Assembly (NCBI GenBank): GCA_965228415.1
Contig: OZ245814.1
Span: 2,001,125-2,065,124 of the forward strand
From: Cyclobacteriaceae bacterium
GTDB taxonomy: Bacteria; Bacteroidota; Bacteroidia; Cytophagales; Cyclobacteriaceae
Direction: 5' to 3'
DNA: 64,000 nucleotides
The notes under the pieces were generated by a model, which saw nothing but the letters and a program-made list of their open reading frames with translations, was not told the DNA's origin and made no database searches. The first letter of the stretch is position 1. Each line of letters begins with the position of its first letter. Of this stretch, positions 20,334 to 40,965 are shown piece after piece. The translations under genes were made by a program, and so were the position numbers.

Positions 20334-23300
20334 CTAGCGAATTGAGGCCTTCTCATCTTTGTCTTTCTTATTCTTTTCGTTAATGCCAAGTGATGGTTTA
20401 ATACCGCTCAAAAGGGATTTCCAAAGAAAGTTAAACAGGGATTTCTTTTTGTCCCTTTCAAAATAAATCTCTCCTACTCTCAAATTTTTGCCATTAGGGT
20501 TTTTATTGTTAATGACAAAAGTATTCGCTAAAAATGAAGCAAATCCACCTTTGTCACCGGTTTTCTTTTTAATCACCGTAATCTTCAAATCACTATATCT
20601 AAAGCGCATTTCACCAACGGCAAAATTATTATTTCCGTCAAATGAAAAATCCATCTTATCGTTCTGGCCGCTTTTTACAGAAACAAAGGCGACATTTTCC
20701 AACATCGGATTCACATCTCTTAAATCAAAGCGGTCGATGGTTCCCTGAAGTGTAAATTTGTTCTGCTTACCGGAAATATTGGAACTAAAATATGCCTGGA
20801 TTTTGCCTTTTCCCATCAACATGGCCCGGGCGTCAATGGTAAGCATGTCATTTCTTTTCCAGGCCGCCGGCGCGTTGGTAATATTTCTTACGTCGGCATT
20901 CACGTTGGTAAATTCGATTTTACCCGGTTTTTGTCCATCTTCCGTGAATTCTTCATAGGATACATAGCCATTTTTCAATTGCAACAGATCCAGCTTCAGG
21001 TAGCGGTCAAAATCTCTAATCCATTCCTGGGGCATAAGTGGCTTTTGATCTGTTGGAAATGGTAACCTTTTGTCTCTAAAATTCCGTGCCCTGAAATTAT
21101 TTATATTAACGATGCCTGCCTTCACCCAACCCCGCAAAATATAATTTTCAAAATCGAAGTTTTTAAATTCCACCAGCCGTGCATTAAATTCTACACGGTC
21201 TTTTTCATGACCCAGCTTATTGGCAAATTGAAACTTTCCGTATTTTGGTTTCAAAACGACGGAATCCATATATATTCTGGATTTTGCCAGACTGACACCA
21301 ATTTCATCGGCTTTCAACGTGTAGAGACTATCCGGTAAGCGATAGGTATAATCCTTAATCTTAAGATCAATATCATCAGCGTAAAACAGCCTGGAATCGA
21401 TCTTCCTTGATTTGTTATTCAAATTAAAATTTTTCACCTTTCCTGAAATCCGTTCCAGCAGCATGTCCTGACTTTCGGGATCTTTCACTTTTTTCAGCGA
21501 AAAGGTAGCACCGCTGAAATCAAGTTTTTGCACATTCAAAAATTTGAGGTTCTTGGACAGTAATTTGTCCAGGATATCCTTCGGATCGATCCGCTTACCT
21601 CCCTGAACAGGTTCTTTATAGCTGATTAACCCGATATTCGGGTTTTTGATATAGGCATTTCTTACCGTGTAATTCTTTTGCAAATAAGCCTTTTCCAGGT
21701 CGATACCAGTCAGGTCAATTTTTGGAAAACTTACATCAAACAGGAGTTTACTTTTCTGATTTCTCAGCAGTTGGTTATAATTTTTGTTTCTTCTGGGTTT
21801 TAGTCTGAAGTCTTCTGCGGATAAAAGCTTTTTGCCCGATGATACGTTGATGTTGCTGGCACTTATATGATGTATACTATCCGGCAACCGCATTTGATAA
21901 TTAGTCATATCCAGCTCAATGTTATCTGCATAAAGAATTTTCCGGCTGTTGTTCAAGATGACAGAATCAAGCAAAAAATCATTCAGCCTCATGGAAAAAT
22001 CGGTAGTAGAGAAGATTTGTTTCTTCCTTCCCAGTTGGTTTCCCAAAGCCACCCGGCCATTGGTCAACTTAACATCCTTGATCTTGACACCCTTCAGAAC
22101 AGCCGGCATTCGGGCCTGTCGGGAGCGGCTCATAAACTTGTTTTTCCCCTTAATTTCTACCTGGTTAATAATTTCAAAGGTCGGTTTGCTCAGTTCAATA
22201 TCATTAATCTCCAGCAGGTTGTTGTAATATAACTTGTTGATATCCACGCCCTGCATGACAATGGTAGGCACCGACACGTTGTAAAATGCTGGCAAATCCA
22301 CCGTATCCAGGCGGTTGCTTTTCGGATGTAGCTTAGAAGATTTTAAATATATCTCCGATTTGGCCGTAGAAATTCCTACTTCCCGGGTCCTCAACACATG
22401 AATACTGTCGGGAAGGTTAATGAGATAATTATTCAACTTCACTTCAATATCATCGGAATAAAAAATCCGGTTTTTGTTGCGGCTGGACTGGTTATTTAAC
22501 ACAAAGTTGGTGGCCTCAATAGAGACATTATTTTGCGATAAAGTATTGGCGTCTTGCGATGTGTTGGTGACAACATTAAAAAACCCGTTGTTTAAACGCA
22601 TTTTTGTTATATTGATTGATTTGAGGTAATCTTCAAACAAAGCGTACAAATCATCTTTTTTGAATGTTGAGTTCCTCCTTTGCCGGGTGATGTGGGTGTA
22701 GCGATTGAGTACAACATTCGGTTTGTCGATGGTAATAGTCTTAATATTTAAAAAATGCCTGAAATAGGCCTTTCGTATATCAGCCCCATTGATAAGCAAA
22801 GATGGAATATCGATGTTGTACAGGACAGATCGATTTGACCTTCTAAGAAACATATCTATGTTCTTGACCGGGATAGGAAATAGTTTTATACCGTTGGCAT
22901 AGATCTGTGACTTGATGGTTGATATTCCTACTTTCCTGGCTTTTAATATGTGCAAATCATCTGACAACTTCATCAGATAACGCTCTAAAGTAAAGGTGAT
23001 GTTATCGGCAAAGAAAATCCGGTTGGACGTATATTGACCTACGGAATCAAGCTTGAAATTGTCCAGTGAAAAAGCAATTCTACCCGCCCTTATCGTATCC
23101 TTTTTGGCTCCTTTATAATTCGCATATTCCAGGCTTCCGTCTCTCAGCTGTATCTGGCTGACTGCGATGGATTTCACATAGTTCTTAATCAGCCGGTACA
23201 GTGACGCTTCGTCAAGCTGGTTGTGGCTGACCCTCGGCTTGCTATAATCAGAGATTTTTACAATCGGGTTTTCAACCAATAATTTTCGAAATTCAAGATC

Positions 23301-24761
23301 CCGGTAGTTGTATACCTTTTTAAAATCAACCCCCTCAAGGTCCAGTTGCGGAACAGACAAATTATACAATTCATATCCATTTCTCCTTGCCAGGGCCTCA
23401 TTCCCTTGTTTTGGCTGCAAGGAAACCGTATTGGCAATCGCTGATCTACTGAGCGTTGAGAACTCAATTTTTGCCGCTTTTAATATATGGAGACTGTCCG
23501 CGAGATCCATGGTATATTCACCGATATCTACAGTCAAATCATCCGCATAGAATATTTTTTCCTCGTTTCGATAAGATGATGAATCCACGAGAAACTGGCT
23601 GATCGCCACCGATACATCATTGGCCAGAATATGGGGCCTGTTGTTATCTATTTCCTGGGTGATGGCAAATTTACCATTGACGATTTCAAACGAGTCCACG
23701 TGAATCTTGTCAAGATAGGCGGAGCTTAGCGAGTACAAATTTCTGGAAATGGAATCGCGGTCCATTTTTGTGAATTTCTTTCTGGTTATAAACCTGATCT
23801 CGGGTTCATTCAGGTTTACATAGTCAATATCAAAAACACCATCAAAATAGGCCTGGTAAATATCTGCGCCGCTGATTTCTATCTCCGGAATGTAGATATC
23901 GTAAAACTCTTCATTATCATCATTCTTGATACTATCCGGCGCCATGCTTGGCAGTAACCACAATTTCTTCCCGCTAATGGTAGAGGTGGCAGTAGAAACA
24001 TTGACTTCCTCAGCCTCCAGCACATGCACACCATCACTTAATTTTAACCTGTAGTCCTCAATGTCAAGGTTGATGTGATCGGCAAACAGCAGCCGGCTGC
24101 TATCTTGCGTGAAAGTGGAATCAATGCGAAATCCATTTAAGGTAATGAAGATATCGCCGGCAGTAGATAATGCGGTCTTGCCATACTGGCTGTTTTCCAA
24201 AATAATTGAGCCGTTGGAAAACTTCAATTCCTTGATTAATAGCGCCTTAATATATTTTCTAAGAAAGGGATAAACATCGTTATATATCTTGTTGTGCCTG
24301 TTGGTCCCGTCAAACTTGTTGGCGCCTAAAAAATCCACTTTAGGATCTGTAATTTCTACGTTGGCAATTTCTAAAACCTTGTCGTAATAAAGTTTCAATA
24401 GCCCTATCCCGCCTACCTTAATTTCCGGAAACTCGATGTTATAGTAGCTTTTGACAGTGTCGGCCTTAACCTTATCCAGGAATGCATCGTTGGGTTGGAC
24501 GCTTAAATCCTTAATTTTGAAACCCAGACCCGCCAGGTTGATATGCACTTTCTCAAATTCGATTTTGTACACCCCGCCGCTCTCGGCCATTAGTTTTCGC
24601 TGTAAAACCTGCCGGATGAAAGGATCGGAAAAATAAAACAGCAGTACCTGGAATATCACTAATATACCAAGGATTGATAATGATACTCTCAAAAACCTGC
24701 GTCTGGTCCTTCCAGGCCTTTTGGCTTTTTTTTGTTTAATATTTGCCTTTTTGTTACTCAA
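20334..24761 (-). CDS. AsmA/TamB-family giant envelope protein (1475 aa)
   Basis: N-terminal basic stretch plus a single TM anchor; long beta-rich body with more than five internal ~150-aa repeats (...LHILKARKVGISTIKSQIYANGIKL..., ...IHVLRTREVGISTAKSEIYLKSSKL...) typical of AsmA-like/TamB proteins. Confidence 0.5.
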   Translation of the reverse strand: MSNKKANIKQKKAKRPGRTRRRFLRVSLSILGILVIFQVLLFYFSDPFIRQVLQRKLMAESGGVYKIEFEKVHINLAGLGFKIKDLSVQPNDAFLDKVKADTVKSYYNIEFPEIKVGGIGLLKLYYDKVLEIANVEITDPKVDFLGANKFDGTNRHNKIYNDVYPFLRKYIKALLIKELKFSNGSIILENSQYGKTALSTAGDIFITLNGFRIDSTFTQDSSRLLFADHINLDIEDYRLKLSDGVHVLEAEEVNVSTATSTISGKKLWLLPSMAPDSIKNDDNEEFYDIYIPEIEISGADIYQAYFDGVFDIDYVNLNEPEIRFITRKKFTKMDRDSISRNLYSLSSAYLDKIHVDSFEIVNGKFAITQEIDNNRPHILANDVSVAISQFLVDSSSYRNEEKIFYADDLTVDIGEYTMDLADSLHILKAAKIEFSTLSRSAIANTVSLQPKQGNEALARRNGYELYNLSVPQLDLEGVDFKKVYNYRDLEFRKLLVENPIVKISDYSKPRVSHNQLDEASLYRLIKNYVKSIAVSQIQLRDGSLEYANYKGAKKDTIRAGRIAFSLDNFKLDSVGQYTSNRIFFADNITFTLERYLMKLSDDLHILKARKVGISTIKSQIYANGIKLFPIPVKNIDMFLRRSNRSVLYNIDIPSLLINGADIRKAYFRHFLNIKTITIDKPNVVLNRYTHITRQRRNSTFKKDDLYALFEDYLKSINITKMRLNNGFFNVVTNTSQDANTLSQNNVSIEATNFVLNNQSSRNKNRIFYSDDIEVKLNNYLINLPDSIHVLRTREVGISTAKSEIYLKSSKLHPKSNRLDTVDLPAFYNVSVPTIVMQGVDINKLYYNNLLEINDIELSKPTFEIINQVEIKGKNKFMSRSRQARMPAVLKGVKIKDVKLTNGRVALGNQLGRKKQIFSTTDFSMRLNDFLLDSVILNNSRKILYADNIELDMTNYQMRLPDSIHHISASNINVSSGKKLLSAEDFRLKPRRNKNYNQLLRNQKSKLLFDVSFPKIDLTGIDLEKAYLQKNYTVRNAYIKNPNIGLISYKEPVQGGKRIDPKDILDKLLSKNLKFLNVQKLDFSGATFSLKKVKDPESQDMLLERISGKVKNFNLNNKSRKIDSRLFYADDIDLKIKDYTYRLPDSLYTLKADEIGVSLAKSRIYMDSVVLKPKYGKFQFANKLGHEKDRVEFNARLVEFKNFDFENYILRGWVKAGIVNINNFRARNFRDKRLPFPTDQKPLMPQEWIRDFDRYLKLDLLQLKNGYVSYEEFTEDGQKPGKIEFTNVNADVRNITNAPAAWKRNDMLTIDARAMLMGKGKIQAYFSSNISGKQNKFTLQGTIDRFDLRDVNPMLENVAFVSVKSGQNDKMDFSFDGNNNFAVGEMRFRYSDLKITVIKKKTGDKGGFASFLANTFVINNKNPNGKNLRVGEIYFERDKKKSLFNFLWKSLLSGIKPSLGINEKNKKDKDEKASIR

Positions 24762-24886
24762 AAAAACGACAGTTATTAGTAAAAATAAGACAATCGCCTA
24801 ACATATCCTCAGTATGACCCATAATTCAAATAATCTTGCACGGTTAAAAGCCGCGCCCTTATCAATGCAAAACGCCCGAAATTATG

Positions 24887-25492
24887 CTAAATTAACGGGA
24901 ATGTACAAATACTCTTGTGACAGGTGCAGTGGTTTCCCAGATGAAATAATCCCACCTTATCATAGGTGACGGTATCTGGTATCCGGATACTGTCGGGCAC
25001 TTTTCCATAGCCAAGGGTAATATGAGGCCAAAAATTTTCGCCTATATTCCGTTCCCAAAAATTATTAATGTAGGTTATACTGGAATCCCCAATTTGTGAA
25101 TCACCGGCAAACATTGCTGCGGTTATGTCTCCCACCAAAGAAGATCTGAAACTTTTTATCAATGTTTCATGCAGCTGCTGCAGGCGTTCATTTTTTTTAA
25201 AATCAAGGCTCGCACAGTCATTTTTATAGGCCACTTTATCAATTTTCAGATGAAATGGAGCACAAGACGAGGTCAATGACCGAATTTCTTTAGCGGACCC
25301 CTCCAGCTGATCCACCGGAAATCCTCCCATCACGAGGGTAAGGTGCGGCAAATTAGTGGCCTTTGATAAAACAATTTGCTGATTAGCTGGTTGCCGTAAC
25401 GTCCTGTTCAGCAAGACGATATCTATGATATCCCGATCTGACGGTAATAAAACAATGTCTGCCGCTATAATTTCTGTCGGGTGTTGGTACAA
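24887..25492 (-). CDS. 2H-phosphoesterase superfamily protein (LigT/ThpR 2'-5' RNA ligase-like)
   Basis: Two H-x-T/S-x motifs (LPHLTLVMGGF and WPHITLGYGK) at the spacing expected for the 2H fold. Confidence 0.6.
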   Translation of the reverse strand: MYQHPTEIIAADIVLLPSDRDIIDIVLLNRTLRQPANQQIVLSKATNLPHLTLVMGGFPVDQLEGSAKEIRSLTSSCAPFHLKIDKVAYKNDCASLDFKKNERLQQLHETLIKSFRSSLVGDITAAMFAGDSQIGDSSITYINNFWERNIGENFWPHITLGYGKVPDSIRIPDTVTYDKVGLFHLGNHCTCHKSICTFPLI

Positions 25493-25524
25493 GGGAATGG
25501 TTGCTTGATTTATTTCATATTAAA

Positions 25525-25977
25525 TCACCATATTTCTAATTCCAGGTGTAATTCTCCTTCATTATCATAGATGCCACTGTCAATATCATTACACCGCAAC
25601 TGCAATACCTTAGGGTAATCTGTTTTGGGAATTAAAATTCCATCCCGGTCAATGGCAAACAACGTAGCGTTGTTATTATCCCCATCGTCCTCCAATTGTG
25701 GAAATTCCATGACAAAATGCCCGTTTGACTTTATGTTTTCGGAATACAATACTCTTCCAATCAGACAGCCTTCGTTTTTCCCGGCCATTGGATACTCCGA
25801 CTTTTCAGCTTTGACCGGCCCTCCTTCCGGGCCATATTTATTGGGCCCGTGCTTGCCGGGATTAATATTCCATAACCCGTCTTTATAGTGCACAAATACA
25901 GAATATCCTGCTGGAATGGTGATTCCTTTTTGCCACGTTTCGAAGGCCACAACTTTTCTAGGTATTTTGGCTCCCAT
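25525..25977 (-). CDS. Hypothetical protein with PA-IL/LecA-like lectin domain
   Basis: Block NINPGKHGPNKYGPEGGP...GCLIGRVLYS resembles the PA-IL galactophilic lectin core (..SYGPTQKWGPQG...GLICHDAFCGALVMKIG). No signal peptide is obvious. Confidence 0.4.
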   Translation of the reverse strand: MGAKIPRKVVAFETWQKGITIPAGYSVFVHYKDGLWNINPGKHGPNKYGPEGGPVKAEKSEYPMAGKNEGCLIGRVLYSENIKSNGHFVMEFPQLEDDGDNNNATLFAIDRDGILIPKTDYPKVLQLRCNDIDSGIYDNEGELHLELEIW

Positions 25978-26097
25978 GATTTATTATGTTTTTTCACATC
26001 ATCAACTGCTTCAAATATATACATTATACCACTTGAAAATTCCTTAAATATTACCAATACCTAACATGGATTAAATAATTGAGGCAATCGTCTCAAT

Positions 26098-26598
26098 TCA
26101 ATCCCGGCTCATATAGGCAATAGAAGCAATTTTCCATTGACCGTTAAACCTGATCAAAGTGATGGCATCAATTCCCTCCCATCGGTAAAGGCTATCTTCG
26201 GTACCAAACTTAGCTTCGTAAAATACCCACGCCTGGGCCAGGCCACCTTCAACCTTAATGTCGCTTTTCACCATCTTTTCCTCAAATATCGGCTGACTGT
26301 CAGGCCCTTCGGGTGCCTTTACAATAAATTCAGGAATGGTAGTATAATGGATGTCTTCTGCACTTTCGCCAGGTTTTTGCCAGACAGTTGTCATTACAGC
26401 TCCCTCCCAGAAATGAGTCGCAAAAGCCTGCCAGTTCCGGTCCGAAAAATCCTGGTAATATTGGGCCAACGCCGCCTCGATCCTCTTTTTAGATAAGACA
26501 TTTTCCTCGCTTTCTTTCAATTCCTTTTTTTTCGGAGAACAGGCCTTAAAAGACAGCGCAATTAAAAGTAATGATATGGCAAAAGCAGAAACCCTCAT
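26098..26598 (-). CDS. Hypothetical lipoprotein, NTF2-like fold (DUF4440-like)
   Basis: Signal peptide with lipobox SFKAC; ~150-aa alpha+beta domain of the NTF2/SnoaL size class. Confidence 0.4.
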   Translation of the reverse strand: MRVSAFAISLLLIALSFKACSPKKKELKESEENVLSKKRIEAALAQYYQDFSDRNWQAFATHFWEGAVMTTVWQKPGESAEDIHYTTIPEFIVKAPEGPDSQPIFEEKMVKSDIKVEGGLAQAWVFYEAKFGTEDSLYRWEGIDAITLIRFNGQWKIASIAYMSRD

Positions 26599-26603
26599 GT
26601 CAA

Positions 26604-27083
26604 TTATTGGTAGGTGGCATGTTGGGCTATAAATTTTTCCAGGTTATTCAATGCAGTCTTATGAACTTTGTTTTTTAAAACCGGTGACCACCCCAACGCC
26701 AGGCCCGGCAACCCGAGTGCCTGTCTTGACCATCGCCAAAAGTTAAATTCATCGTCATGTTGTATAATTTTGCCCGCTTCAAACCGGAATTTTGCCTTGA
26801 TGATATTATGCACCTTTTGCCCTGTAGCTGAAAAAGTGTATTTTGCTTCCCACCGGCAGGAACCTCGCCGCTCATCACTTTCCACCTCGCTAAACGTAAG
26901 CTCCAAATCCTTTCCTCGTTCACAAAGCATATGCCACATGGCAGCAGTCTGTTTGTAATTTAGTGTCAGAAATGCCGGGTCTCTGAAAGTCAGCTTCTCG
27001 TGGTAGCAGGCGGCCATGGATTGATAGTCTCTCCTTTGGAATGCCTCGTAAAATGATGCGATTAAATGATTATGATCTGGCAA
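26604..27083 (-). CDS. SnoaL/NTF2-like small protein
   Basis: The N-terminal IASFYEAFQRRDYQSMAACYHEKLTFRDPAF block is typical of SnoaL-like polyketide-cyclase/NTF2 domains. Lies 5 bp from the upstream lipoprotein gene. Confidence 0.5.
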   Translation of the reverse strand: MPDHNHLIASFYEAFQRRDYQSMAACYHEKLTFRDPAFLTLNYKQTAAMWHMLCERGKDLELTFSEVESDERRGSCRWEAKYTFSATGQKVHNIIKAKFRFEAGKIIQHDDEFNFWRWSRQALGLPGLALGWSPVLKNKVHKTALNNLEKFIAQHATYQ

Positions 27084-27106
27084 GGGTTAAGGGTTTAGGT
27101 AATTGT

Positions 27107-27814
27107 TTAGTATCTCATGTCAGGAAAACCAACCGGATCCGCCCACAATCTGTTAAACTCTTTCTGATAGCTTTTGACCACCGCCGCATCCTGCGTCACC
27201 ATTAAATTCTCATGGTTATTCTCGGCAGCGCTTCTCGTCCAGTTGTAACTCCCCGTAAGTACGGAAATACCATCAATAACTGCAAATTTATGGTGCATAT
27301 GATGGGAGGTGTCATCGGTTTTTATATGGATACCCGCTTTTAACATTGTTTCGATATCGGAACCCAGATCGTAAATTTTGTCGTTGTCGGTAATGATCCT
27401 AACGGCAATCCCTCTGCGGTGGCAATCAATAATGGCCCTGGTAATCCTGTCATCGCTAATCGTAAACACACATAGGTTGATCGTTTTTATGGCCTGGTTT
27501 AGCGCTGTTAATATAGCTTCCAAACAGGCACTTCCCGGAGAAAAGTAAACCTGGCTAACACCATGTACCGACTTTTTAGGTAATAGAATTTTATTGGCCG
27601 TCTCCAACCAATCGATGATTTTTAAAATTCCATGCTCATGGGCATGGTTCCGGGCCAGTTCAAAAATTTTATGCCTCAGCAGGTCGAGTGTGCGTTTATC
27701 CTGACGGTAGTCTTCTATTTTTTGTTTGAGCGCTCGCTTTTCCAGCCTCGAAAAATTGCCGTCCTCAATAGTATCGCGAAACGACTGAGTAATCTCTTCC
27801 ATTGGTTCAGACAT
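27107..27814 (-). CDS. PLD-family single-HKD (Nuc-like) nuclease/phosphodiesterase with ~100-aa N-terminal helical extension
   Basis: HxK(x)4D(x)6GSxN motif HHKFAVIDGISVLTGSYNWT, preceded by the Nuc-like core VYFSPGSA...ITDNDK. A single HKD copy implies a homodimeric active site. Confidence 0.75.
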   Translation of the reverse strand: MSEPMEEITQSFRDTIEDGNFSRLEKRALKQKIEDYRQDKRTLDLLRHKIFELARNHAHEHGILKIIDWLETANKILLPKKSVHGVSQVYFSPGSACLEAILTALNQAIKTINLCVFTISDDRITRAIIDCHRRGIAVRIITDNDKIYDLGSDIETMLKAGIHIKTDDTSHHMHHKFAVIDGISVLTGSYNWTRSAAENNHENLMVTQDAAVVKSYQKEFNRLWADPVGFPDMRY

Positions 27815-27838
27815 CTTTGAACTAATTTTTGAACATTT

Positions 27839-28618
27839 CTATTTTAATTTCTTTTTTATCTCTCTGATTTCATCCTCAATTTTCAGAACCCTTGCCTCCA
27901 CGGCGGAGGGTGGGTTTAGGTAGATACTATAAACCCCGTAAACCTGCCATAACTCCAGGATCTCATCAGTTTTCAGGTAAATGGTAGAATAGTTGGGATC
28001 ATCCGCAGAAAATTCGATCTGGTCGCCGATATCCGTTATTCTTCGCGTAGTAATATTGTCTTTGGTCACCACCACGAATACCTTACCCTTCCTGATATTC
28101 CTGGCTGTTAATGTTTCGATTTGATAACCCAGCAAAATGTCTCCATGATGCAGCCCATTGTGATTATATTCCATCTCACTGCCATTCAACTGAAAAGCCC
28201 TTGACTTTTCCTTGCGACTGATGGGCAGGTAAATTTTTTCCAGCCTGGAAATAAAATCCTTATTCTGATAATTTACAATGTACTCCAGGTATTTGTCTAC
28301 CAAAACCAGCGATATGCCACCTTCCGGCATGGCACTTGTCTTTTTTCCGGCATCAGGCAGGCCTACTCCATCCGCGTCACCGACAATAATATCGAATTTA
28401 TAAAGATCATTTACCGTCAATTCTTTATTTAATAGCAAATCAATGGAAAGTCCAAAATGATGAGCAATTTGAACAATTGTCTCGATCTTTGGTTCCGCTC
28501 TACCCTCCTCATATGCTCCAACACTAGGCCTGGCCAGGCTAAATAATTCAGCAAAACTAGCCTGACTAAGCTTTTTAACCGTTCTAATCTTTTTAATATT
28601 TTTTCCAATATATGACAT
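27839..28618 (-). CDS. XRE-family HTH + S24 peptidase (LexA/phage CI-like) repressor
   Basis: N-terminal HTH_XRE (IKKIRTVKKLSQASFAELFSLARPSVGAYEEG) and a C-terminal S24 LexA-like beta-domain. It is the first gene of the minus-strand operon. Confidence 0.8.
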   Translation of the reverse strand: MSYIGKNIKKIRTVKKLSQASFAELFSLARPSVGAYEEGRAEPKIETIVQIAHHFGLSIDLLLNKELTVNDLYKFDIIVGDADGVGLPDAGKKTSAMPEGGISLVLVDKYLEYIVNYQNKDFISRLEKIYLPISRKEKSRAFQLNGSEMEYNHNGLHHGDILLGYQIETLTARNIRKGKVFVVVTKDNITTRRITDIGDQIEFSADDPNYSTIYLKTDEILELWQVYGVYSIYLNPPSAVEARVLKIEDEIREIKKKLK

Positions 28619-28916
28619 AACAAAAATTATTTTATGCTAATTTTTTGAGCTTCTCTAAAACTTTTAGTATATTTATTCCGTAAACAATATTAAACGCCGT
28701 CTAATTTAACGAATAAATATCTAATATTATTATCATAGTAAATAAAAGTAGCATTTCCAATTTCAATTAACAAACCACTACCAACAAACATATTCATGAA
28801 AAAAAAATTAGATCGATACTAAATGCCTTCCTTTTAAATTAACCTGCTTCAAAATAAGCAGATATATCAAATCAAAACAATTTTACAATGGATAAGAACT
28901 TATAAAAACTCAAACA

Positions 28917-29312
28917 ATGGATAACGATTTTAATAAAGTAAAAAACTACATCCTTGAACTCAATTATCTAATTACCTACGAAAACGAAAGCGACGGACTG
29001 ATTGCCATCGAAAAAGAAACGGAAGGAATCAAAAACCTGGTACTGGGTATTGCCGAACCCTTATTAATTGTCGAACAATTTATTCTTGAAATTAATAAAG
29101 ACAACCAGGATGTATACAAAAGTCTTTTACAAAAAAACCGGGATATCATTCACGGTGCCTTTGTACTGGACGAAAGCGGCAAAAAACTCATCTTCAGAAA
29201 CACCCATGAATTAGAAAATCTCAATTTGAATGAAATCGAAGGGACTTTAAATTCTTTGGGACTATTGCTCAGTGAATACTCTGAAGAGTTAATAAAATTT
29301 TCCAAAAATTAA
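28917..29312 (+). CDS. Small hypothetical protein, possibly YbjN/T3SS-chaperone-like
   Basis: 131 aa, acidic, with two alpha/beta half-repeats; it is the first gene of the psp-like cluster. The fold assignment is tentative. Confidence 0.35.
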   Translation: MDNDFNKVKNYILELNYLITYENESDGLIAIEKETEGIKNLVLGIAEPLLIVEQFILEINKDNQDVYKSLLQKNRDIIHGAFVLDESGKKLIFRNTHELENLNLNEIEGTLNSLGLLLSEYSEELIKFSKN

Positions 29313-29326
29313 ACGCAAGTTGTATT

Positions 29327-30061
29327 ATGAACATTTTCAAGAGAATCTTTAAAATCGGACAGGCTGAGGCCCATTCCACGGTTGATAAACTGGAGGATCC
29401 CATTAAAATGACCGAGCAGGGAATCAGAGATATGAAGGCAGACCTGGAGAAAAGCCTGAAAGCTTTGGCGGAGGTAAAATCCCTCGCTATAAGAGCCCGG
29501 GATGATGCAGAAAGTAATAAAAACAAAGCAAAAGATTATGAAAACAAGGCCATGCTACTTTTAAAGAGAGCACAGTCTGGTGATATGGATATGTCGGAAG
29601 CCGACCGGTTAGCCACCGAAGCCCTGGTAAAAAAAGAGGAGTGTCTGCAGCAAACCAGCAGGGCCAATGCACAGCAACACAAATTTGAGGAAAATGTAGC
29701 CGCACTCAATGCCAATATCAAGACCATACGCGGAAATATCAGCAAGTGGGAAAATGAATTAAAAACCCTGAAAGCCAGGGTAAAAGTGAGCTCGGCCACC
29801 AAGACTTTAAATAAGCAATTAGCTCAAATTGATTCCTCCAGCACTGTATCAATGCTGGAAAAAATGAAGGATAAAGTGGCCAGGGAGGAAGCAATCGCGG
29901 AATCTTACGGTGAGATTGCTCAGGAAAGCAGATCTGTAGATGAGGAAATTGACAAGGCACTGGCCGGAGCCGGCCATGACCGTGCTGTGGAAGATCTAGG
30001 AGCACTCAAAAAGAAATTAGGAATTATCAAAAAAGACGATGAGGGAGCAGAAGGGGAATAA
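29327..30061 (+). CDS. PspA/IM30 (Vipp1/LiaH, ESCRT-III-like) family protein
   Basis: Canonical PspA N-terminus (MNIFKRIFKIGQAEAHSTVDKLEDPIKMTEQGIRDMKADL) and coiled-coil throughout, 244 aa. Confidence 0.85.
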   Translation: MNIFKRIFKIGQAEAHSTVDKLEDPIKMTEQGIRDMKADLEKSLKALAEVKSLAIRARDDAESNKNKAKDYENKAMLLLKRAQSGDMDMSEADRLATEALVKKEECLQQTSRANAQQHKFEENVAALNANIKTIRGNISKWENELKTLKARVKVSSATKTLNKQLAQIDSSSTVSMLEKMKDKVAREEAIAESYGEIAQESRSVDEEIDKALAGAGHDRAVEDLGALKKKLGIIKKDDEGAEGE

Positions 30062-30221: not shown

Positions 30222-30875
30222 ATGACAGAACTTTTTGATGCAGCGATTTCATTGCCCAATATTATCCCAACAGCCTTGCTGGGCCTGGTATTGCTATACT
30301 GGATAACAGTTGTGTTGGGTGCATTGGATTTTGATTTTTTGGATTTTGACCTGGATACGGAAATCGAGGGTGAATTAGAGGTGAGTGCAGACGCAGGCGG
30401 TGAGGGTGATGTTTCCATATCCTGGCTCAATTCAATTCTCGTATTCTTTAATATTGGCAGAGTCCCCTTCATGCTGTTTTTAAGCACTTTAGCGTTGCCA
30501 TTGTGGGTACTCTCCGTAATGACCAACTATTACCTGGGCATCGAATCGTTCCTGGGCGGATTACTGGTTTTTGTTCCGGTATTTTTTGTAAGCCTGTTCA
30601 TTGCCAAATTTCTGACCTTTCCGTTTGTTAAGCTATTTCAACATATGGAAAAAGAAGACGGAGAATCGAATTCGGCTGTCGGCAAGATTTGCGTTGTCTC
30701 TACCCTGATCACAGATAAAAAAATCGGTCAGGCGCAAGTAGCAACCAGCGGATCACCGATTTTACTGAATGTGGTAACGGGATCGGGCCATCAACTTAAA
30801 AGTGGCGACACCGCACTGGTCATCGAATTTTTAAAAGAGAGAAACCTGTACCTGGTAGAACCCTATAGCGGCTGA
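30222..30875 (+). CDS. NfeD/YqiJ-like membrane protein with C-terminal OB-fold
   Basis: Acidic DFDFLDFDLD segment, 3–4 TM helices, and a C-terminal NfeD beta-barrel (GKICVVSTLITDKKIGQAQV...GDTALVIEF). Confidence 0.6.
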   Translation: MTELFDAAISLPNIIPTALLGLVLLYWITVVLGALDFDFLDFDLDTEIEGELEVSADAGGEGDVSISWLNSILVFFNIGRVPFMLFLSTLALPLWVLSVMTNYYLGIESFLGGLLVFVPVFFVSLFIAKFLTFPFVKLFQHMEKEDGESNSAVGKICVVSTLITDKKIGQAQVATSGSPILLNVVTGSGHQLKSGDTALVIEFLKERNLYLVEPYSG

Positions 30876-35235: not shown

Positions 35236-35272
35236 GTGTAAATTCTTCATCAACCTATTAATATTAAATACT

Positions 35273-36033: not shown

Positions 36034-39000
36034 ATGACAGAAAAAAAAACAAATAACAAAAAGAAAAATCAAAATCCGGCTGCCGAATTGGAGGCGGGAA
36101 CTTATGAAATTTTAAGCAAAAGGCTGCAAAATAATGGCCTTCAGCTCAGGGAAAAGCTACACAGGCTCAACGAATCCAGAAAGGAAGTATTTGGATCAAT
36201 TGATACTGCGCTGATCACAACCGAAAGAATAAATACGGAGCACAACTGTATTCCCTGGGACATGGAACCGATCGGTAATCACTTTATCTTTGGCTACAAT
36301 GTCCATATCGGGCTGAAAGTGGAAATGCAACTCGCCGATGTGTTCAGTATTTATACTTTCAAAGATCACGGCTTTCACGCCGAAGGACTCGAATTGATCA
36401 CCGACAACGCCTTCATTGAAGATTTCAGAAAGTTATATAAGTATTATAAAAACACCCGGTTTGTAAAATTTGCACGGATTGAAAATCATTTGTTCATGAT
36501 TTTCCGGGTAGGAAAAGGCAGGGATGATATCAAGACATTTAAATGGTTAATAAACGGTTTGGAATTGGTCTATGTAGACAACAGGAGTGATCATGAATAT
36601 GTTTTTCCCAGCCAACACGAATTTAACTGGAAAAAAACCAACAGAGACTTCCACCGGGAAGGTGAATTTCCTCATATCTCTATTGAGGACAAGGTTTTTG
36701 TAGAAACGATTGGTGGTGACCTTACCATTAAAATAGAGGACAACACCGATGAGGGAAAAGGAATATATGCGGAAAAGGTGGAAAATATAGATCAAAGACT
36801 GGAAGACGCTGAGATTTATTATACCATTTTAGGAAATATTATTATTCTTAAAATCAGACCTTATCAGGAAAAAAACTTTCGCTATATCGTTTACAACGCA
36901 AAATTAAAGGAAGCCAGGAGAATCGACGCTTTAAAAGATGCCTGTGTATTGTTGCCGGATGATTATGGGATCATTTTTTCCAACGGCTATTACCTAAAGA
37001 CGGGAGAGTTTAAGCAATTCGACAACCAGTTGGATAACATGCATTTTGAAAGAAGAATTGCCTCGCCTAATGGCGAAGATTTTCTTTATGTCTTTTACAA
37101 TAAAGACTCCGGGGTTTATCTTTTATTTCCTTATAATATCATCGAGCAAAAAGTCAATACGCCGCTAACCTGTCACGGTTATTCGATCTTTGAAAACGGG
37201 GAGCTTATTATTTTGAATGCGGACAATGCAGCCAAAAAGCATCACGCTATACAAATATGGCAGACCCCTTATACCGGACCAAATTACCAGGTACAGGGCT
37301 CCAACAACTCCTATTTATATAAAATCGGCAACAAAGAAATCGTTAAGGCCATGGCTGAATGCCATGAAGTAATCAGCCTCATTGAAAAGGGAGACGACTA
37401 CGAAAACCTATATGCAGATTTAATAGGGATTACCGGCGATTTAAAAGACAGCTATCATTGGGTCGCCAGAGAAGAGGCGCATGATCTGGCTTCATCGTTG
37501 ACAGCCATACACGAGACCGCATCATCTGCTATCTCCGAATTTGAAAAAGTAAACGCGCTTAGAAAAAACACCAGAGAACAGGTGGCCTTGATATCAAAGG
37601 AAACCAAGGGCCTGATCAGCAAAATAAAACGTCAAAAAACGGACACGGTCAATGCCTACGTGTTGAACCTGCAAGACCTGCGAAATATCCGGGGTAAATT
37701 GATTTCTTTGAAAGAACTGCGGTACGTGGATCTTGAAGCCGTTGAAGGGTTTGAAAAAGAGGTGGAAATGGCTACTGCGAATACCTCCGGGGAATGTATT
37801 AAATTCTTGCTAAAAAAAGATGCACTGGCACCCTACGCGCAAAACGTGACCAGGATTGAGCGCGCAGTGCAACAGTTGGAAAAAATAGTGGAAGCCAACC
37901 AATTGGCAGAGGAGATTGCCAAAGTATCAGGGGAGTTGGAATTACTGATAGAAATTGTCACCAACCTGAAAATTGAAGATGCTACCGAAACTACCAGAAT
38001 TGTGGATAACATTTCGACCATCTATTCAGGTTTTAATAAAATAAAGGCAGATCTCAAAAATAAGAGAATATTGCTGTTGGGTGTCGAGGGTAAGGCGGAG
38101 TTCAATGCACAAATGAAGTTGGTAGACCAGGGGCTGATCAACTACCTGGACATCTGTGACACACCCGAAAAATGTGATGAATACCTTACCAGGTTAATGG
38201 TTCAGCTGGAGGAGCTGGAAGGTAAATTTTCCGAATTCGATGAATTTATAGATAAAATAAGCCTCAAAAGGGAAGAAATCTATAACGGGTTTGAAACCCG
38301 CAAAATTGCCCTGATCGAAGCGCAAACCAAACGGGCCAATACGTTGATGCAGGCCGCCGACAGAATTTTGGGTGCGGTCAAAAGCCGTGTGTCCAGGTTT
38401 GAATCAATTGATGAGATCAATGGCTATTACGCCGGGGATCTGATGGTAGAAAAAGCACGTGACATAATTACCTCACTGGTAGATTTGGGTGATACCGTGA
38501 AATCCGATGAGATCCAAAGCCGGCTGAAAGCAGTGCGCGAAGAAGCTATGAGGCAACTCAAAGACAAAAAAGAGCTGTTCCTTTCCGGAGAAAATATCAT
38601 TCAATTTGGTAATCATAAGTTTTCGGTCAATACGCAACCCCTTAGTCTTACCATTGTACCAAAAGGGGATGACATGTATTTTCACCTGACAGGCACAAAC
38701 TTTTTCGAAAAAATCAACGATGCCGGCTTTAATGATTGCAAAGCTGTCTGGGATCAGGCCCATGTATCTGAAAATCCACAGGTTTACAAAGGCGAATACC
38801 TGGCTTACAAAATCATAAAATCAAAGCCTTCGGGTTCAGGTGCAGCGCAAAATATAGCCGTTCTTACGCCCGAGCAGTTAATAAAGCTGGATCAAAAAAA
38901 ATTGAAGAATTACGTGCAGCAATTCATGGCCACAAGATATCATGAAGCCTATATAAAAGGGGTTCATGACCACGATGCCATCATGATATTAAATGTTTTA

Positions 39001-40965
39001 CTCAGGTTCTTAAAGTCGGGAGATTTACTGAGATATTCGTCAGAAGCCAGAGCCTGTGCTACCCTATACTGGAAAGTTTTCATTTCGGCAGAAAACAAAA
39101 ACCATCTTAACCATCAGTTAAAGGGTGTCGGCACCATCCTGAAAGTATTCCCTGAAACCAGAGAATTTGATGATATCAAACTGGTATTACAAAGAAAAAT
39201 TGAAGCCTTTGTAGGTGACACTGGTCTGTTTGACAGCACCGTTTGCCATCAGGCAGCTGAATATTTATTCCATGAGGTAAACCGGGGCGACAGGTTTATT
39301 ATCGATGTGGAATCGGCCAGACTCTATGAGGGGTTTTTTCAATACCTCGGCAAAAAAAAGGCAAAAAAAGAGTTCGACCGATCTATTGCACAAATTGCTG
39401 CCGACTCTTTGGCAAAATACAGATTAATTCAGCACTGGCTGCGGGCCTTTGTCCGGTCCGGCGATAAAATCACCGGTGATGAATACATCAACGAAACCGC
39501 TGCCATCATTTTAACGGACTCCTTTAAACCCAACCACGTAATTCATGTCGCCTTAAAAGAGACGCTGCAAGGTTTATTGGGTACACATAGCATGATTAAA
39601 GACAAGAAGTATGAGCTGGACTATAATGCCTTTACTCTGAAACTGGATAATTTTGAAAAGCAGGTAGTTCCTAAATACCACAAATTTCTGCAATTAAAGA
39701 AAGAGATTTCCACCACTTATAGCGAAGCGCTGAGGCTGGAGGAATTCAGACCAAGAATTTTATCATCATTCGTAAGAAATCAATTAATAGATAGCGTATA
39801 CCTTCCACTGATAGGTGCCAATCTGGCAAAACAGATTGGAACCGTCGGAGAAAACAAGAGAACCGACCTGATGGGCATGTTATTGCTAATTTCCCCACCT
39901 GGCTACGGCAAAACCACCCTCATGGAATATATTGCTAATCGCCTGGGGCTCATATTTATGAAAATAAACGGCCCCGCTATCGGCCATCAGGTTACCGCTG
40001 TTGATCCGGCGGAAGCTACAAATGCCGGTGCCAGAGAGGAGTTGGAAAAATTAAACCTTGCATTCGAGATGGGTGACAACGTGATGATTTACCTAGATGA
40101 CATTCAACATTGTAATCCGGAGTTTCTGCAAAAATTCATCTCACTCTGCGATGGTCAAAGAAAAATTGAGGGAATATATAAAGGCAAGAGTAAAACCTAC
40201 GATTTCAAGGGGAAAAAGGTTTGTGTGGTGATGGCCGGCAATCCCTATACCGAAAGTGGGGAGAAGTTTAGCATTCCCGATATGCTGGCTAACCGGGCAG
40301 ATATTTATAATCTGGGAGATATCATAGGTGATAACGCCAATGTATTTAAGTTGAGCTACCTGGAAAACAGCCTGACCTCTAATCCGGTCATGAATAAACT
40401 GGCGGGAAAAAGTCAGAAGGACCTGTATACCATGATCAAAATTGCTGAAACTGACAACAAGGAAGGGCTTGATTTTGACTACGCTTATGCCACTACTGAA
40501 ATAGATGAATATGTCAACGTTCTGAAAAAACTGCTGAAAGTACGCGATATCATATTAAAGGTCAACATGGCCTATATATACTCCGCTGCGCAAGCCGATG
40601 AATATCGAACTGAGCCACCTTTTAAACTACAGGGGTCTTACAGGGATATGAACAAAATTGCCGAAAAGGTAGTACCTGTGATGAATGAAAAAGAACTGGC
40701 AACCCTGATTGATACTCATTATGAAAATGAGGCACAAACACTGACGACCGGTGCGGAGGCAAATTTATTGAAGTACAAAGAGCTTCAAAAAGCCCTGAAC
40801 GGCCAGGATCAACAAAGGTGGGATGAGATCAAAAAGACCTTTGTCCGCAAACAGCAGCTAAGTGCACTTGGAGGGCAAAATCAGGTAGGACAGGTATTGT
40901 TGCAGATGGAGCATATTAACGACGGATTGAAAGGCATCATCAGTGCCTTGATACAAGATAAATAA
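36034..40965 (+). CDS. Giant (1643 aa) protein with single C-terminal MoxR/AAA_5-like AAA+ module and ~1280-aa coiled-coil-rich N-terminal extension
   Basis: Walker A variant LLLISPPGYGKTTL and Walker B VMIYLDDIQH. MoxR-type sensor/arginine block VVMAGNPYTESGEKFSIPDMLANRAD. The first ~430 aa are beta-rich; residues ~430–1280 are largely helical/coiled-coil. Confidence 0.7.
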   Translation: MTEKKTNNKKKNQNPAAELEAGTYEILSKRLQNNGLQLREKLHRLNESRKEVFGSIDTALITTERINTEHNCIPWDMEPIGNHFIFGYNVHIGLKVEMQLADVFSIYTFKDHGFHAEGLELITDNAFIEDFRKLYKYYKNTRFVKFARIENHLFMIFRVGKGRDDIKTFKWLINGLELVYVDNRSDHEYVFPSQHEFNWKKTNRDFHREGEFPHISIEDKVFVETIGGDLTIKIEDNTDEGKGIYAEKVENIDQRLEDAEIYYTILGNIIILKIRPYQEKNFRYIVYNAKLKEARRIDALKDACVLLPDDYGIIFSNGYYLKTGEFKQFDNQLDNMHFERRIASPNGEDFLYVFYNKDSGVYLLFPYNIIEQKVNTPLTCHGYSIFENGELIILNADNAAKKHHAIQIWQTPYTGPNYQVQGSNNSYLYKIGNKEIVKAMAECHEVISLIEKGDDYENLYADLIGITGDLKDSYHWVAREEAHDLASSLTAIHETASSAISEFEKVNALRKNTREQVALISKETKGLISKIKRQKTDTVNAYVLNLQDLRNIRGKLISLKELRYVDLEAVEGFEKEVEMATANTSGECIKFLLKKDALAPYAQNVTRIERAVQQLEKIVEANQLAEEIAKVSGELELLIEIVTNLKIEDATETTRIVDNISTIYSGFNKIKADLKNKRILLLGVEGKAEFNAQMKLVDQGLINYLDICDTPEKCDEYLTRLMVQLEELEGKFSEFDEFIDKISLKREEIYNGFETRKIALIEAQTKRANTLMQAADRILGAVKSRVSRFESIDEINGYYAGDLMVEKARDIITSLVDLGDTVKSDEIQSRLKAVREEAMRQLKDKKELFLSGENIIQFGNHKFSVNTQPLSLTIVPKGDDMYFHLTGTNFFEKINDAGFNDCKAVWDQAHVSENPQVYKGEYLAYKIIKSKPSGSGAAQNIAVLTPEQLIKLDQKKLKNYVQQFMATRYHEAYIKGVHDHDAIMILNVLLRFLKSGDLLRYSSEARACATLYWKVFISAENKNHLNHQLKGVGTILKVFPETREFDDIKLVLQRKIEAFVGDTGLFDSTVCHQAAEYLFHEVNRGDRFIIDVESARLYEGFFQYLGKKKAKKEFDRSIAQIAADSLAKYRLIQHWLRAFVRSGDKITGDEYINETAAIILTDSFKPNHVIHVALKETLQGLLGTHSMIKDKKYELDYNAFTLKLDNFEKQVVPKYHKFLQLKKEISTTYSEALRLEEFRPRILSSFVRNQLIDSVYLPLIGANLAKQIGTVGENKRTDLMGMLLLISPPGYGKTTLMEYIANRLGLIFMKINGPAIGHQVTAVDPAEATNAGAREELEKLNLAFEMGDNVMIYLDDIQHCNPEFLQKFISLCDGQRKIEGIYKGKSKTYDFKGKKVCVVMAGNPYTESGEKFSIPDMLANRADIYNLGDIIGDNANVFKLSYLENSLTSNPVMNKLAGKSQKDLYTMIKIAETDNKEGLDFDYAYATTEIDEYVNVLKKLLKVRDIILKVNMAYIYSAAQADEYRTEPPFKLQGSYRDMNKIAEKVVPVMNEKELATLIDTHYENEAQTLTTGAEANLLKYKELQKALNGQDQQRWDEIKKTFVRKQQLSALGGQNQVGQVLLQMEHINDGLKGIISALIQDK

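Follow-up and report, generated by a model that had tools for sequence, protein, structure and literature searches.

A PspA-linked XRE-family regulator with a degenerate S24-like domain, its candidate operator and a partner HKD phosphodiesterase in a Cyclobacteriaceae bacterium

We analysed a 64,000-nucleotide window from a Cyclobacteriaceae bacterium (assembly GCA_965228415.1, contig OZ245814.1), in which six ORFs lie on the minus strand between positions 24887 and 28618 with intergenic gaps of 24, 23, 5, 120 and 32 bp, counted from the regulator gene onwards. A sequence-only reading of this DNA had described six minus-strand genes with gaps of 5–120 bp, and its coordinates agree with ours; its domain calls (XRE-HTH with S24, single-HKD PLD, SnoaL and 2H) were likewise right by Pfam comparison. 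The genes and features of the locus are:

24838..24856, minus strand: terminator-like hairpin 3' of the 2H gene
24887-25492, minus strand: 2H phosphoesterase (2_5_RNA_ligase2, 7e-9)
25525-25977, minus strand: 150-aa protein
26098-26598, minus strand: probable NTF2-like lipoprotein (lipoprotein-like leader; sub-threshold NTF2-clan matches, E 0.01-0.05)
26604-27083, minus strand: SnoaL_2 protein (Pfam, 2.4e-13)
27107..27814, minus strand: single-HKD phosphodiesterase of the MitoPLD/Zucchini/Nuc clade, 235 aa (PLDc_2, 3.5e-32, residues 101-224), here called PLD
27839..28618, minus strand: XRE-family regulator, 259 aa (Pfam HTH_3, 1e-9; Peptidase_S24, 9.6e-8)
28619..28916, no strand: shared divergent control region, 298 bp, ~23% GC against ~42% in its surroundings
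28917-29312, plus strand: CesT/Tir-like chaperone gene (CesT_Tir_1, 2e-53)
29327-30061, plus strand: PspA/IM30 gene, 14 bp from the CesT gene (PspA_IM30, 1.9e-41)
30222-30875, plus strand: membrane protein, 217 aa, labelled YqiJ/NfeD-like from its position and architecture
30929-33061, plus strand: flotillin, 710 aa, with homologues conserved across loci
36034..40965, plus strand: giant DUF3686-DUF7902-AAA+ ATPase, 1643 aa, of the flotillin-type PSP cluster (Pfam)

The plus-strand genes resemble a known operon type that combines CesT/Tir-PspA with Band-7/flotillin, YqiJ/YuaF and AAA+ proteins and, in some Proteobacteria, an HKD phospholipase D (Ravi et al., mSystems 2024, PMC11237479). The window shares with that operon the CesT_Tir_1 protein, PspA, a membrane protein (no Pfam match, but syntenic in all flotillin-type loci), flotillin, the giant DUF3686-AAA+ protein and an HKD hydrolase. 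It differs in the placement of its PLD gene, which follows an XRE regulator gene on the other strand, and in two genes, for a DUF5687 protein and an ABC ATPase, that separate flotillin from the AAA+ gene. The regulator goes unmentioned in the main text of PMC11237479, where the terms XRE, S24, LexA and peptidase do not occur.

To characterise the neighbourhood of the regulator, we used 45 XRE-centred orthologue loci (identity of 33% or more, with 700 bp or more of sequence upstream). Its constant partner is the divergent CesT/PspA dyad, found in 40 of the 45 loci and kept for flotillin-type operons and for DUF4178/DUF350/spermine-synthase-type operons alike; in five loci (L083 and L084, for example) no psp genes lie nearby. 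The divergent arrangement spans Cytophagales, Flavobacteriales, Marinilabiliales and Bacteroidales, while the genes downstream of the regulator vary. PLD follows the regulator in only 4/33 loci (3/10 of the flotillin-type and 0/8 of the non-flotillin loci). Viewed from PLD, the XRE+psp arrangement recurs in 16 of 80 PLD-centred loci from several Bacteroidota orders, so the search for an XRE-S24 and PLD pairing proposed in the sequence-only reading does recover it in relatives. Fourteen of these 16 loci have a regulator-PLD gap of -8 to +24 bp, by which the two genes are almost certainly co-transcribed, as had been supposed from the window; the membrane protein and flotillin are syntenic in 14/16, and the gene after PLD is on the opposite strand in 10/16. 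In most of the PLD family (62/80 loci), neither psp nor flotillin genes lie within 8 kb. Flotillin-type PSP clusters that include PLD occur in Bacteroidota, Proteobacteria and Planctomycetota. In Corallincola (L077) PLD is co-operonic and directly follows the DUF3686-AAA+ gene, which recovers the proteobacterial form of PMC11237479, and is itself followed by a gene for a TFIIB-type zinc-ribbon protein. In a Pirellulaceae MAG (L052) it is co-operonic and precedes flotillin and a 213-aa ORF that matches the 217-aa membrane protein of the window at 30% identity.

The regulator starts with an HTH (residues 4-66) and ends in a coiled-coil tail; between them lies a degenerate S24-like domain (residues ~130-226). 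The Peptidase_S24 match runs over residues 130-219 and profile positions 29-107 of 116, placing the domain in the S24 fold, and the family profile matched LexA chains alone in the PDB. It thus shares with LexA, lambda CI and UmuD an N-terminal DNA-binding domain joined to a C-terminal S24-fold domain, but the catalytic residues differ. In HMM alignments, Glu150 (at least 90% conserved) takes the place of the Ser nucleophile (LexA Ser119, UmuD Ser60) and Arg192 that of the Lys base (LexA Lys156, UmuD Lys97); position 192 is mostly R in the family, with K in a few members and H in a few, and its invariant neighbour Arg193 is matched to LexA Arg157. Scores were low for these alignments (E ~0.02-0.05 for LexA), but the LexA and UmuD results agree with each other. 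Three residues N-terminal of Glu150 lies Ser147, ~90% conserved, which some members replace by Pro, Arg or His; it is out of register with the LexA/UmuD nucleophile, although with alignments this weak in score a non-canonical register is possible. G-G-I is conserved at residues 100-102, and the HMM alignments end short of the linker that carries the Ala-Gly/Cys-Gly cleavage site in autoproteolytic S24 repressors. The family has conserved motifs of its own (RAFE[LM]NGSEMEY.Q.GLHHGD, SDDPNY and YLNPP, including the HH and D residues), and the coiled-coil tail and a psp/flotillin neighbourhood (40/45 loci) in place of an SOS or prophage context further separate it from LexA, lambda CI and UmuD. 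In orthologues of other orders that occupy this genomic position, the C-domain is replaced by another one (Carboxylicivirga and Bacteroidales MAGs) or missing (Crocinitomix, 110-115 aa). Because the Ser/Lys dyad has been lost, we regard the S24-like domain as a pseudo-peptidase, which probably serves oligomerisation or signal sensing instead of RecA-type self-cleavage. The proposal of a self-cleaving repressor of the lambda CI/LexA type therefore does not hold for this protein.

PLD combines a four-helix bundle at its N-terminus (residues 3-77), specific to the family, with one HKD domain (residues 88-226); ~95 extra residues precede the PLDc_2 match. The HKD motif is intact (HHKFAVID ... GSYNWT), and H174, K176, D181, S189 and N191 are invariant among 25 family members. 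Mouse MitoPLD is the closest solved homologue (3.6e-30; Nuc, 2.7e-13), and Foldseek comparisons with Nuc/Zucchini relatives gave values of 1.5e-13 to 3e-12 with TM scores of 0.75-0.87 relative to the targets. The single HKD domain with HxKx4D...GSxN is shared with MitoPLD/PLD6/Zucchini, Nuc (Salmonella plasmid pKM101) and NucT (Helicobacter). MitoPLD carries an N-terminal membrane anchor and Nuc a signal peptide, both of which are absent from PLD, whose conserved cytosolic four-helix bundle and genomic link to PspA and flotillin distinguish it from this group. A bacterial cardiolipin synthase is ruled out by the single HKD, the soluble helical N-terminus and Cls model scores far below cut-offs, so PLD is not the housekeeping two-HKD enzyme that the sequence-only reading had set against its own account. 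The family is ~230 aa long, widespread and single-copy, with members in at least 595 species genomes. Judged by its motifs, PLD is an active-looking HKD phosphodiesterase and would be an optional member of PSP clusters of the flotillin type.

The AT-rich divergent intergenic region of ~300 bp noticed earlier measures 298 bp at 23% GC, and the equivalent regions of 55 related loci range from 121 to 379 bp and from 17 to 43% GC. Three conserved elements lie next to the regulator gene:

28634..28652, minus strand: P2, candidate operator AAGCTCAAAAAATTAGCAT, compared with the family consensus TTGCtAA-N5-TTAGCAA
28655..28667, minus strand: P1, perfect palindrome CTAAAAGTTTTAG directly 5' of P2, supported by motif counts
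28671..28686, minus strand: P0, conserved block TGTTTACG..., as seen in aligned upstream regions

P2 ends 15 nt 5' of the regulator ATG. TTGC-N11-GCAA with at most one mismatch occurs in 40/56 intergenic regions, as compared to a mean of 1.6 and a maximum of 6 in shuffled sequences, and the consensus was built from 39 distinct sites. This dyad keeps a fixed position 5' of the regulator ATG and is present in some loci as 2-3 copies ~41 bp apart. Compensatory changes at its inner positions did not exceed chance (116 complementary cells versus 113.9 expected). Elements of the P1 type (CTA-N7-TAG or CCA-N7-TGG) were found in 34/56 regions against 3.4 expected, with the symmetry kept in CCAAAAGTTTTGG variants, and in some relatives P0 is fully palindromic (TGTTTACGTAAACA). 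We infer that a dimer of the 259-aa XRE protein most likely binds TTGCtAA-N5-TTAGCAA, and would in this way autoregulate the regulator-PLD transcript. Control of the divergent CesT-PspA operon would follow by analogy with PspF of E. coli and the Cro-like ClgR of Mycobacterium, dedicated transcription factors that are likewise encoded beside pspA (PMC11237479). ClgR and the regulator share a Cro/XRE-type HTH, but beyond HTH class the regulator has no sequence relationship to either protein; ClgR is encoded inside the mycobacterial clgR-pspA operon whereas the regulator is divergent, and PspF is an AAA+ enhancer-binding protein.

The remaining four minus-strand genes stand apart from this arrangement. 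Only Agaribacillus aureus (L001), the closest relative, has them beside the regulator-PLD pair, which argues against the six genes being one functional unit as earlier suggested. The 2H phosphoesterase has both HxT motifs in its translation (HLTL and HITL), and the 150-aa protein, tentatively lectin-like in the sequence-only reading, had no match in Pfam, NCBIfam, PADLOC, PHROGs or PDB sequences. A TATATTTG box at 26012-26019, fitting the Bacteroidota -7 consensus TAnnTTTG, suggests, from the sequence alone, that these two genes may be transcribed from a promoter of their own. The four genes are probably recent passengers, which may ride on the regulator-PLD transcript outside the conserved unit.

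The sequence-only reading had proposed a damage- or phage-induced toxin or defence module, in which a LexA/CI-type repressor cleaves itself upon DNA damage or phage infection and so derepresses a nuclease operon. The HTH and S24 architecture, a PLD of a nuclease clade immediately 3' of the regulator and probably co-transcribed with it, and weak PLD-domain similarity to DrmC, DpdK and MkoC are in its favour. However, the self-cleavage residues are lost and the C-domain is dispensable in orthologues, therefore neither a DNA-damage nor a phage switch is expected here. The regulator moreover lacks a downstream PLD in 29/33 loci while CesT-PspA is kept, no prophage, recA/SOS or defence-island genes lie nearby, and PLD itself belongs to a widespread single-copy family. 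The component proteins matched PADLOC-DB 2.0 models no further than at the level of generic HTH, PLD and ABC-ATPase domains. Together with the partner counts (CesT-PspA in 40/45, PLD in 4/33), these results make a defence role very improbable.

A nucleic-acid substrate for PLD is a serious alternative, though on balance we consider it unlikely. The regulator would act as proposed above, and PLD would be a nuclease on RNA or DNA that works with the DUF3686 AAA+ ATPase, the flotillin/PspA cluster coupling membrane events to nucleic-acid processing. To our knowledge, the biochemically well-characterised close relatives Nuc, NucT and Zucchini are all nucleases; DUF3686 is named 'ATPase involved in DNA repair' in Pfam, and the zinc-ribbon gene of Corallincola would fit such a role. 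Yet the conserved neighbours of PLD (PspA, flotillin and the YqiJ-like protein) are all membrane-dynamics proteins, PLD itself lacks a nucleic-acid-binding domain, its N-domain being a simple four-helix bundle, and MitoPLD, its closest homologue, is also labelled cardiolipin hydrolase as a PDB molecule name. The favoured substrate is a membrane phospholipid, for example cardiolipin or phosphatidylglycerol, which PLD may convert to phosphatidic acid, and such lipid turnover would support membrane remodelling or repair. Less probable again is that the regulator controls its own transcript alone, with or without PLD, and that its adjacency to CesT-PspA is inherited synteny of no regulatory meaning. 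The dyads may serve autoregulation alone because they adjoin the regulator's start (all conserved dyads are within ~70 nt of its ATG) and lie 100-250 bp away from the CesT promoter region, and most loci show an ordinary TAnnTTTG box on the CesT side. Against this, a third copy of the operator lies ~100 nt from the start of CesT in some lineages, and the divergent arrangement has been kept in four orders and with two psp operon types while the genes downstream of the regulator vary. Persistence of a divergent regulator and operon normally points to shared control.

The above analyses suggest, with a probability of about 0.6, that this locus forms the regulatory and accessory part of an envelope-stress (PSP) system of the CesT/Tir-PspA-flotillin-AAA+ type, and consists of a PSP-linked pseudo-peptidase regulator and a co-transcribed phosphodiesterase. 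While the link between PLD and PSP was already present in the 2024 paper, the XRE regulator family and its candidate operator are new here.

The six minus-strand open reading frames that the sequence-only reading had placed between 24887 and 28618 are all present, with gaps of 24, 23, 5, 120 and 32 bp, and database searches recovered the XRE-HTH and S24 regions expected in the first gene and the single-HKD PLD domain of the second, preceded by ~95 residues. The third protein is, as proposed, a SnoaL_2 protein (Pfam and NCBIfam), and the last matches the 2',5'-RNA-ligase/2H domain, with both HxT motifs in its translation. The fourth carries a lipoprotein-like leader and matched three NTF2-clan families, all below threshold, while for the fifth protein (150 aa) the lectin-like label drew no backing from Pfam (E up to 10), NCBIfam, PHROGs, PADLOC or PDB sequences. 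The two genes that carry the argument, and three conserved DNA blocks upstream of the first, are as follows.

Regulator and PLD genes and conserved upstream blocks (window positions)
27839-28618, minus strand: regulator gene, XRE-type HTH_3 (1e-9) and Peptidase_S24 (9.6e-8) by Pfam and NCBIfam
27107-27814, minus strand: PLD gene, one PLDc_2 domain (3.5e-32, residues 101-224)
28634-28652: block P2, TTGCtAA-N5-TTAGCAA dyad, candidate operator
28655-28667: block P1, palindrome CTAAAAGTTTTAG
28671-28686: block P0, TGTTTACG

A terminator-like hairpin lies 3' of the 2H gene; the sigma-70 promoter scan is not meaningful for Bacteroidota promoters and was used for such hairpins only. Within the 120-bp gap, a TATATTTG box (26012-26019) matching TAnnTTTG sits 35 nt 5' of the 150-aa reading frame, and the 150-aa and 2H genes may, judging from this box, have a promoter of their own. 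Beyond the hairpin, 125 bp 3' of the 2H gene and on the same strand, a 1475-aa reading frame (20334-24761; 96% identity in Agaribacillus aureus) opens with a basic N-terminus and a hydrophobic segment, after which comes a long repetitive body, an appearance that makes it a suspected AsmA-like candidate.

The divergent intergenic region (28619-28916, 298 bp) is as AT-rich as had been noticed, with ~23% GC versus ~42% around it, and across it lie CesT_Tir_1, PspA, 217-aa membrane protein and flotillin genes. The AAA+ member of this cluster, a 1643-aa DUF3686-DUF7902-AAA+ protein, comes only after the flotillin gene and two inserted genes at 33757-35974, encoding a DUF5687 protein (492 aa, E 1.4e-152) and an ABC-type ATPase (265 aa). 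The cluster is exactly the operon class described by Ravi et al. 2024 (PMC11237479), in which a CesT/Tir-PspA dyad accompanies Band-7/flotillin, a YqiJ/YuaF-type membrane protein and a novel AAA+ ATPase; the DUF5687 and ABC-type ATPase genes of the window are not listed in that description.

The regulator had been read as a self-cleaving LexA/CI-type repressor, and its C-terminal half does not bear this out. The family comprises ~260-aa proteins (1187 sequence-cluster representatives matched at E <= 1e-5) whose C-terminal half shows the invariant signature RAFE[LM]NGSEMEY.Q.GLHHGD, Arg193, SDDPNY, W..G.YS.YLNPP and a coiled-coil tail. When a profile of this half was compared with the PDB, LexA chains were the sole matches, with an alignment free of gaps through the active-site region that placed Ser119 on Glu150, Lys156 on Arg192 and Arg157 on the invariant Arg193. 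UmuD, aligned independently, fell in the same register (Ser60 on Glu150, Lys97 on Arg192). At position 192 the family has R, K or H, and some members carry Pro, Arg or His in place of the nearby Ser147. Same-position orthologues in Carboxylicivirga and Bacteroidales MAGs carry an unrelated ~170-aa C-terminal domain, and those of Crocinitomix, only 110-115 aa long, consist of the HTH and a coiled coil. Because the Ser and Lys positions are substituted and the C-terminal domain is swapped or absent in orthologues, self-cleavage is neither chemically supported nor conserved, and by these alignments the S24 domain does not qualify as an autoprotease of the LexA type. Several family members are recorded at NCBI as 'LexA family' transcriptional regulators despite the missing catalytic dyad, which is probably systematic over-annotation.

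The genomic partners of the regulator point to the PSP system. Seeding a metagenome scan with the regulator family yielded 80 loci, and three look-ups added four more. Among the 45 orthologues that share at least 33% identity and have 700 bp or more of sequence upstream, CesT/Tir-PspA genes lay divergently upstream in 40; among 34 more distant XRE-S24 proteins (<33% identity) this was so in only 1. PLD followed the regulator in 4 of the 33 orthologue loci with enough downstream sequence. The neighbouring psp operon can be of the flotillin type, as in the window, or of a DUF4178-DUF350-spermine-synthase type. The latter was seen in a Cyclobacteriaceae MAG and in Fulvivirga ulvae, neither of which has a PLD gene after the regulator. 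In that Cyclobacteriaceae MAG (L082), a small PspC-domain gene (13850-14035) was seen ~6 kb from the regulator. Two Flammeovirgaceae MAG contigs (L083 and L084) hold a 50%-identical orthologue that does not adjoin psp genes and is flanked by a VIT-VWA gene and a 205-aa/HTH_34/CreD/VanZ/M23 peptidase set, another envelope-related neighbourhood.

Seen from the PLD side, the protein represents a full-length family of ~230 aa (3453 matches), and the genome scan yielded at least 595 relatives; the 80 loci fetched came from Bacteroidota, Planctomycetota, Myxococcota, Verrucomicrobiota, Proteobacteria and Aminicenantes. An exact-sequence look-up of the window PLD for curated gene calls returned no record. 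The XRE-S24 plus PLD pairing recurs in relatives, with regulator, PLD and divergent CesT-PspA found together in 16 of the 80 fetched loci, all of them Bacteroidota from several orders, and membrane protein and flotillin genes were also present in 14 of these 16. Outside this arrangement, a Corallincola locus (Gammaproteobacteria) has flotillin, the DUF3686-AAA+ gene and then directly PLD on one strand, and in a Pirellulaceae MAG locus PLD lies 5' of a 213-aa reading frame matching the 217-aa membrane protein (30% identity) and of flotillin; the remaining 62 fetched loci showed no neighbours of that kind. As for the claimed six-gene operon, the close spacing of regulator and PLD held (-8 to +24 bp in 14 of 16 loci), but the last four genes follow PLD only in Agaribacillus aureus, the closest genome among the fetched loci (92% PLD identity), and the gene after PLD is on the opposite strand in 10 of 16. 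Given these short gaps, the variable or opposite-strand next gene and the restriction of the passengers to Agaribacillus, we take the conserved unit to be a two-gene transcript of regulator and PLD.

To characterize the control region, we compared the regulator-CesT intergenic regions of the window and 55 related loci (56 in total). P0, P1 and P2 are conserved across orders within ~70 nt of the regulator ATG. The P2 core TTGC-N11-GCAA (at most one mismatch) occurs in 40/56 regions, versus a mean of 1.6 and a maximum of 6 in shuffles, and P1-type palindromes in 34/56 versus 3.4 expected. Carboxylicivirga and Bacteroidales loci contain two or three TTAGC-containing copies ~41 bp apart, and in five loci (L014, L018, L035, L005 and L006) such operator-like sites fall at about -94, -53 and -12 from the regulator ATG, a phasing that suggests cooperative binding. 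Compensatory covariation within the dyad was considered and rejected: individual sites had looked covarying (TTGCCAAT-ATA-ATTGGCAA and GCTCAAA-C-TTTGAGC), yet a column shuffle over 39 distinct sites gave 116 versus 113.9 expected, with no excess. Since this inner-position test was negative, the claim for P2 is limited to motif conservation and a palindromic consensus. A search of the window for further copies (TTGC-N11-GCAA, one mismatch) was uninformative, with 43 matches versus 37.8 expected.

On the CesT side, a TAnnTTTG box, the Bacteroidota -7 consensus, lies ~40-50 nt 5' of the CesT start in most loci. The window also has a perfect 6-6-6 palindrome, CTGCTTATTTTGAAGCAG (28844-28861, 56-73 nt 5' of CesT), which resembles the P2 dyad with its GC cores 1 bp nearer each other and is retained in Agaribacillus aureus with one mismatch. 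A G/C-rich island ~80-110 nt 5' of CesT (about 28795-28810 in the window), reading CCACC/CCNCC in the CesT sense and GGAGG-like in the regulator sense, stands out from DNA of roughly 20% GC and recurs in L028, L036, L082, L105, L108-L111, L127-L133 and other intergenic regions.

The PLD protein is closest by HKD-domain sequence to mouse MitoPLD/Zucchini (3.6e-30), followed by Nuc (2.7e-13) and NucT (1e-10), and structure alignments to PDB 4ggj and 9lkx gave 34-36% identity to mammalian MitoPLD, with bacterial Nuc/NucT much more distant. This hints that eukaryotic PLD6/Zucchini derived from the bacterial PLD family of the window. Foldseek matches of the AF2 model (pLDDT 86) were Zucchini, Nuc, NucT and FAM83. 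The catalytic H, K and D and the GSxN motif are invariant; a four-helix bundle, made up of the N-terminal 77 residues, has five invariant positions, and no specific structural relative of it was found. The relatives Zucchini, Nuc and NucT are nucleases, and MitoPLD has also been reported as a cardiolipin hydrolase. The genomic partners of PLD are all membrane-remodelling proteins, and with modest confidence we favour a lipid substrate.

The sequence-only reading had seen here a CI/LexA-like damage switch over a nuclease toxin or defence module, a view in keeping with the HTH-S24 architecture and the nuclease relatives of PLD. The features seen in the sequence are real; this interpretation of them is not supported. 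PADLOC scans of all 13 proteins gave domain-level matches only, and the locus does not represent a new defence or toxin system. The regulator is best explained as a transcription factor associated with PSP and bearing a pseudo-peptidase domain. PLD would then be a Zucchini-like phosphodiesterase, optional in the flotillin-type PSP system and co-transcribed with the regulator, and the SnoaL, NTF2-like, 150-aa and 2H genes would be four lineage-specific passengers. The fuller proposal, that the XRE/pseudo-S24 protein is a dedicated and as yet unrecognised PSP transcription factor across Bacteroidota and PLD a cytosolic cardiolipin/PG hydrolase, is tentative, and we give it roughly one chance in four. 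Under it, the catalytically dead S24 domain and the coiled-coil tail would let the regulator sense membrane stress, for instance by reversibly binding PspA or the CesT-like chaperone, by analogy with PspF, which is bound by PspA, and the Zucchini-like PLD would be recruited to PspA/flotillin repair sites.

To our knowledge, little has been worked out about how PspA systems are regulated beyond Proteobacteria, Firmicutes and Actinobacteria. Both the system class and the link of PLD to it have been published; the family of the regulator, the degeneracy of its S24 domain and the candidate operator appear not to have been described before. The main text of Ravi et al. 2024 (PMC11237479) makes no mention of an XRE, S24 or LexA-like regulator and, for the psp operon of mycobacteria, notes ClgR, an HTH regulator of the Cro-like kind. 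Popp et al. 2022 (PMC9239133) found that pspA tends generally to adjoin HTH genes, and Band-7 genes in Bacteroidota, and do not describe the regulator family of the window.

The locus shows clearly how an S24 peptidase domain can become a non-catalytic module, and it cautions against calling every HTH+S24 protein 'LexA family'. That a close relative of MitoPLD/Zucchini in bacteria is repeatedly linked to flotillin and PspA is relevant to whether the substrates of this clade are lipids or nucleic acids; if the fuller proposal is true, PLD would be a bacterial forerunner of mitochondrial MitoPLD, and a lipid role would be supported for this contested enzyme family. The regulator family, its fixed divergent place beside CesT-PspA and the candidate operator together make PSP regulation in Bacteroidota directly testable.
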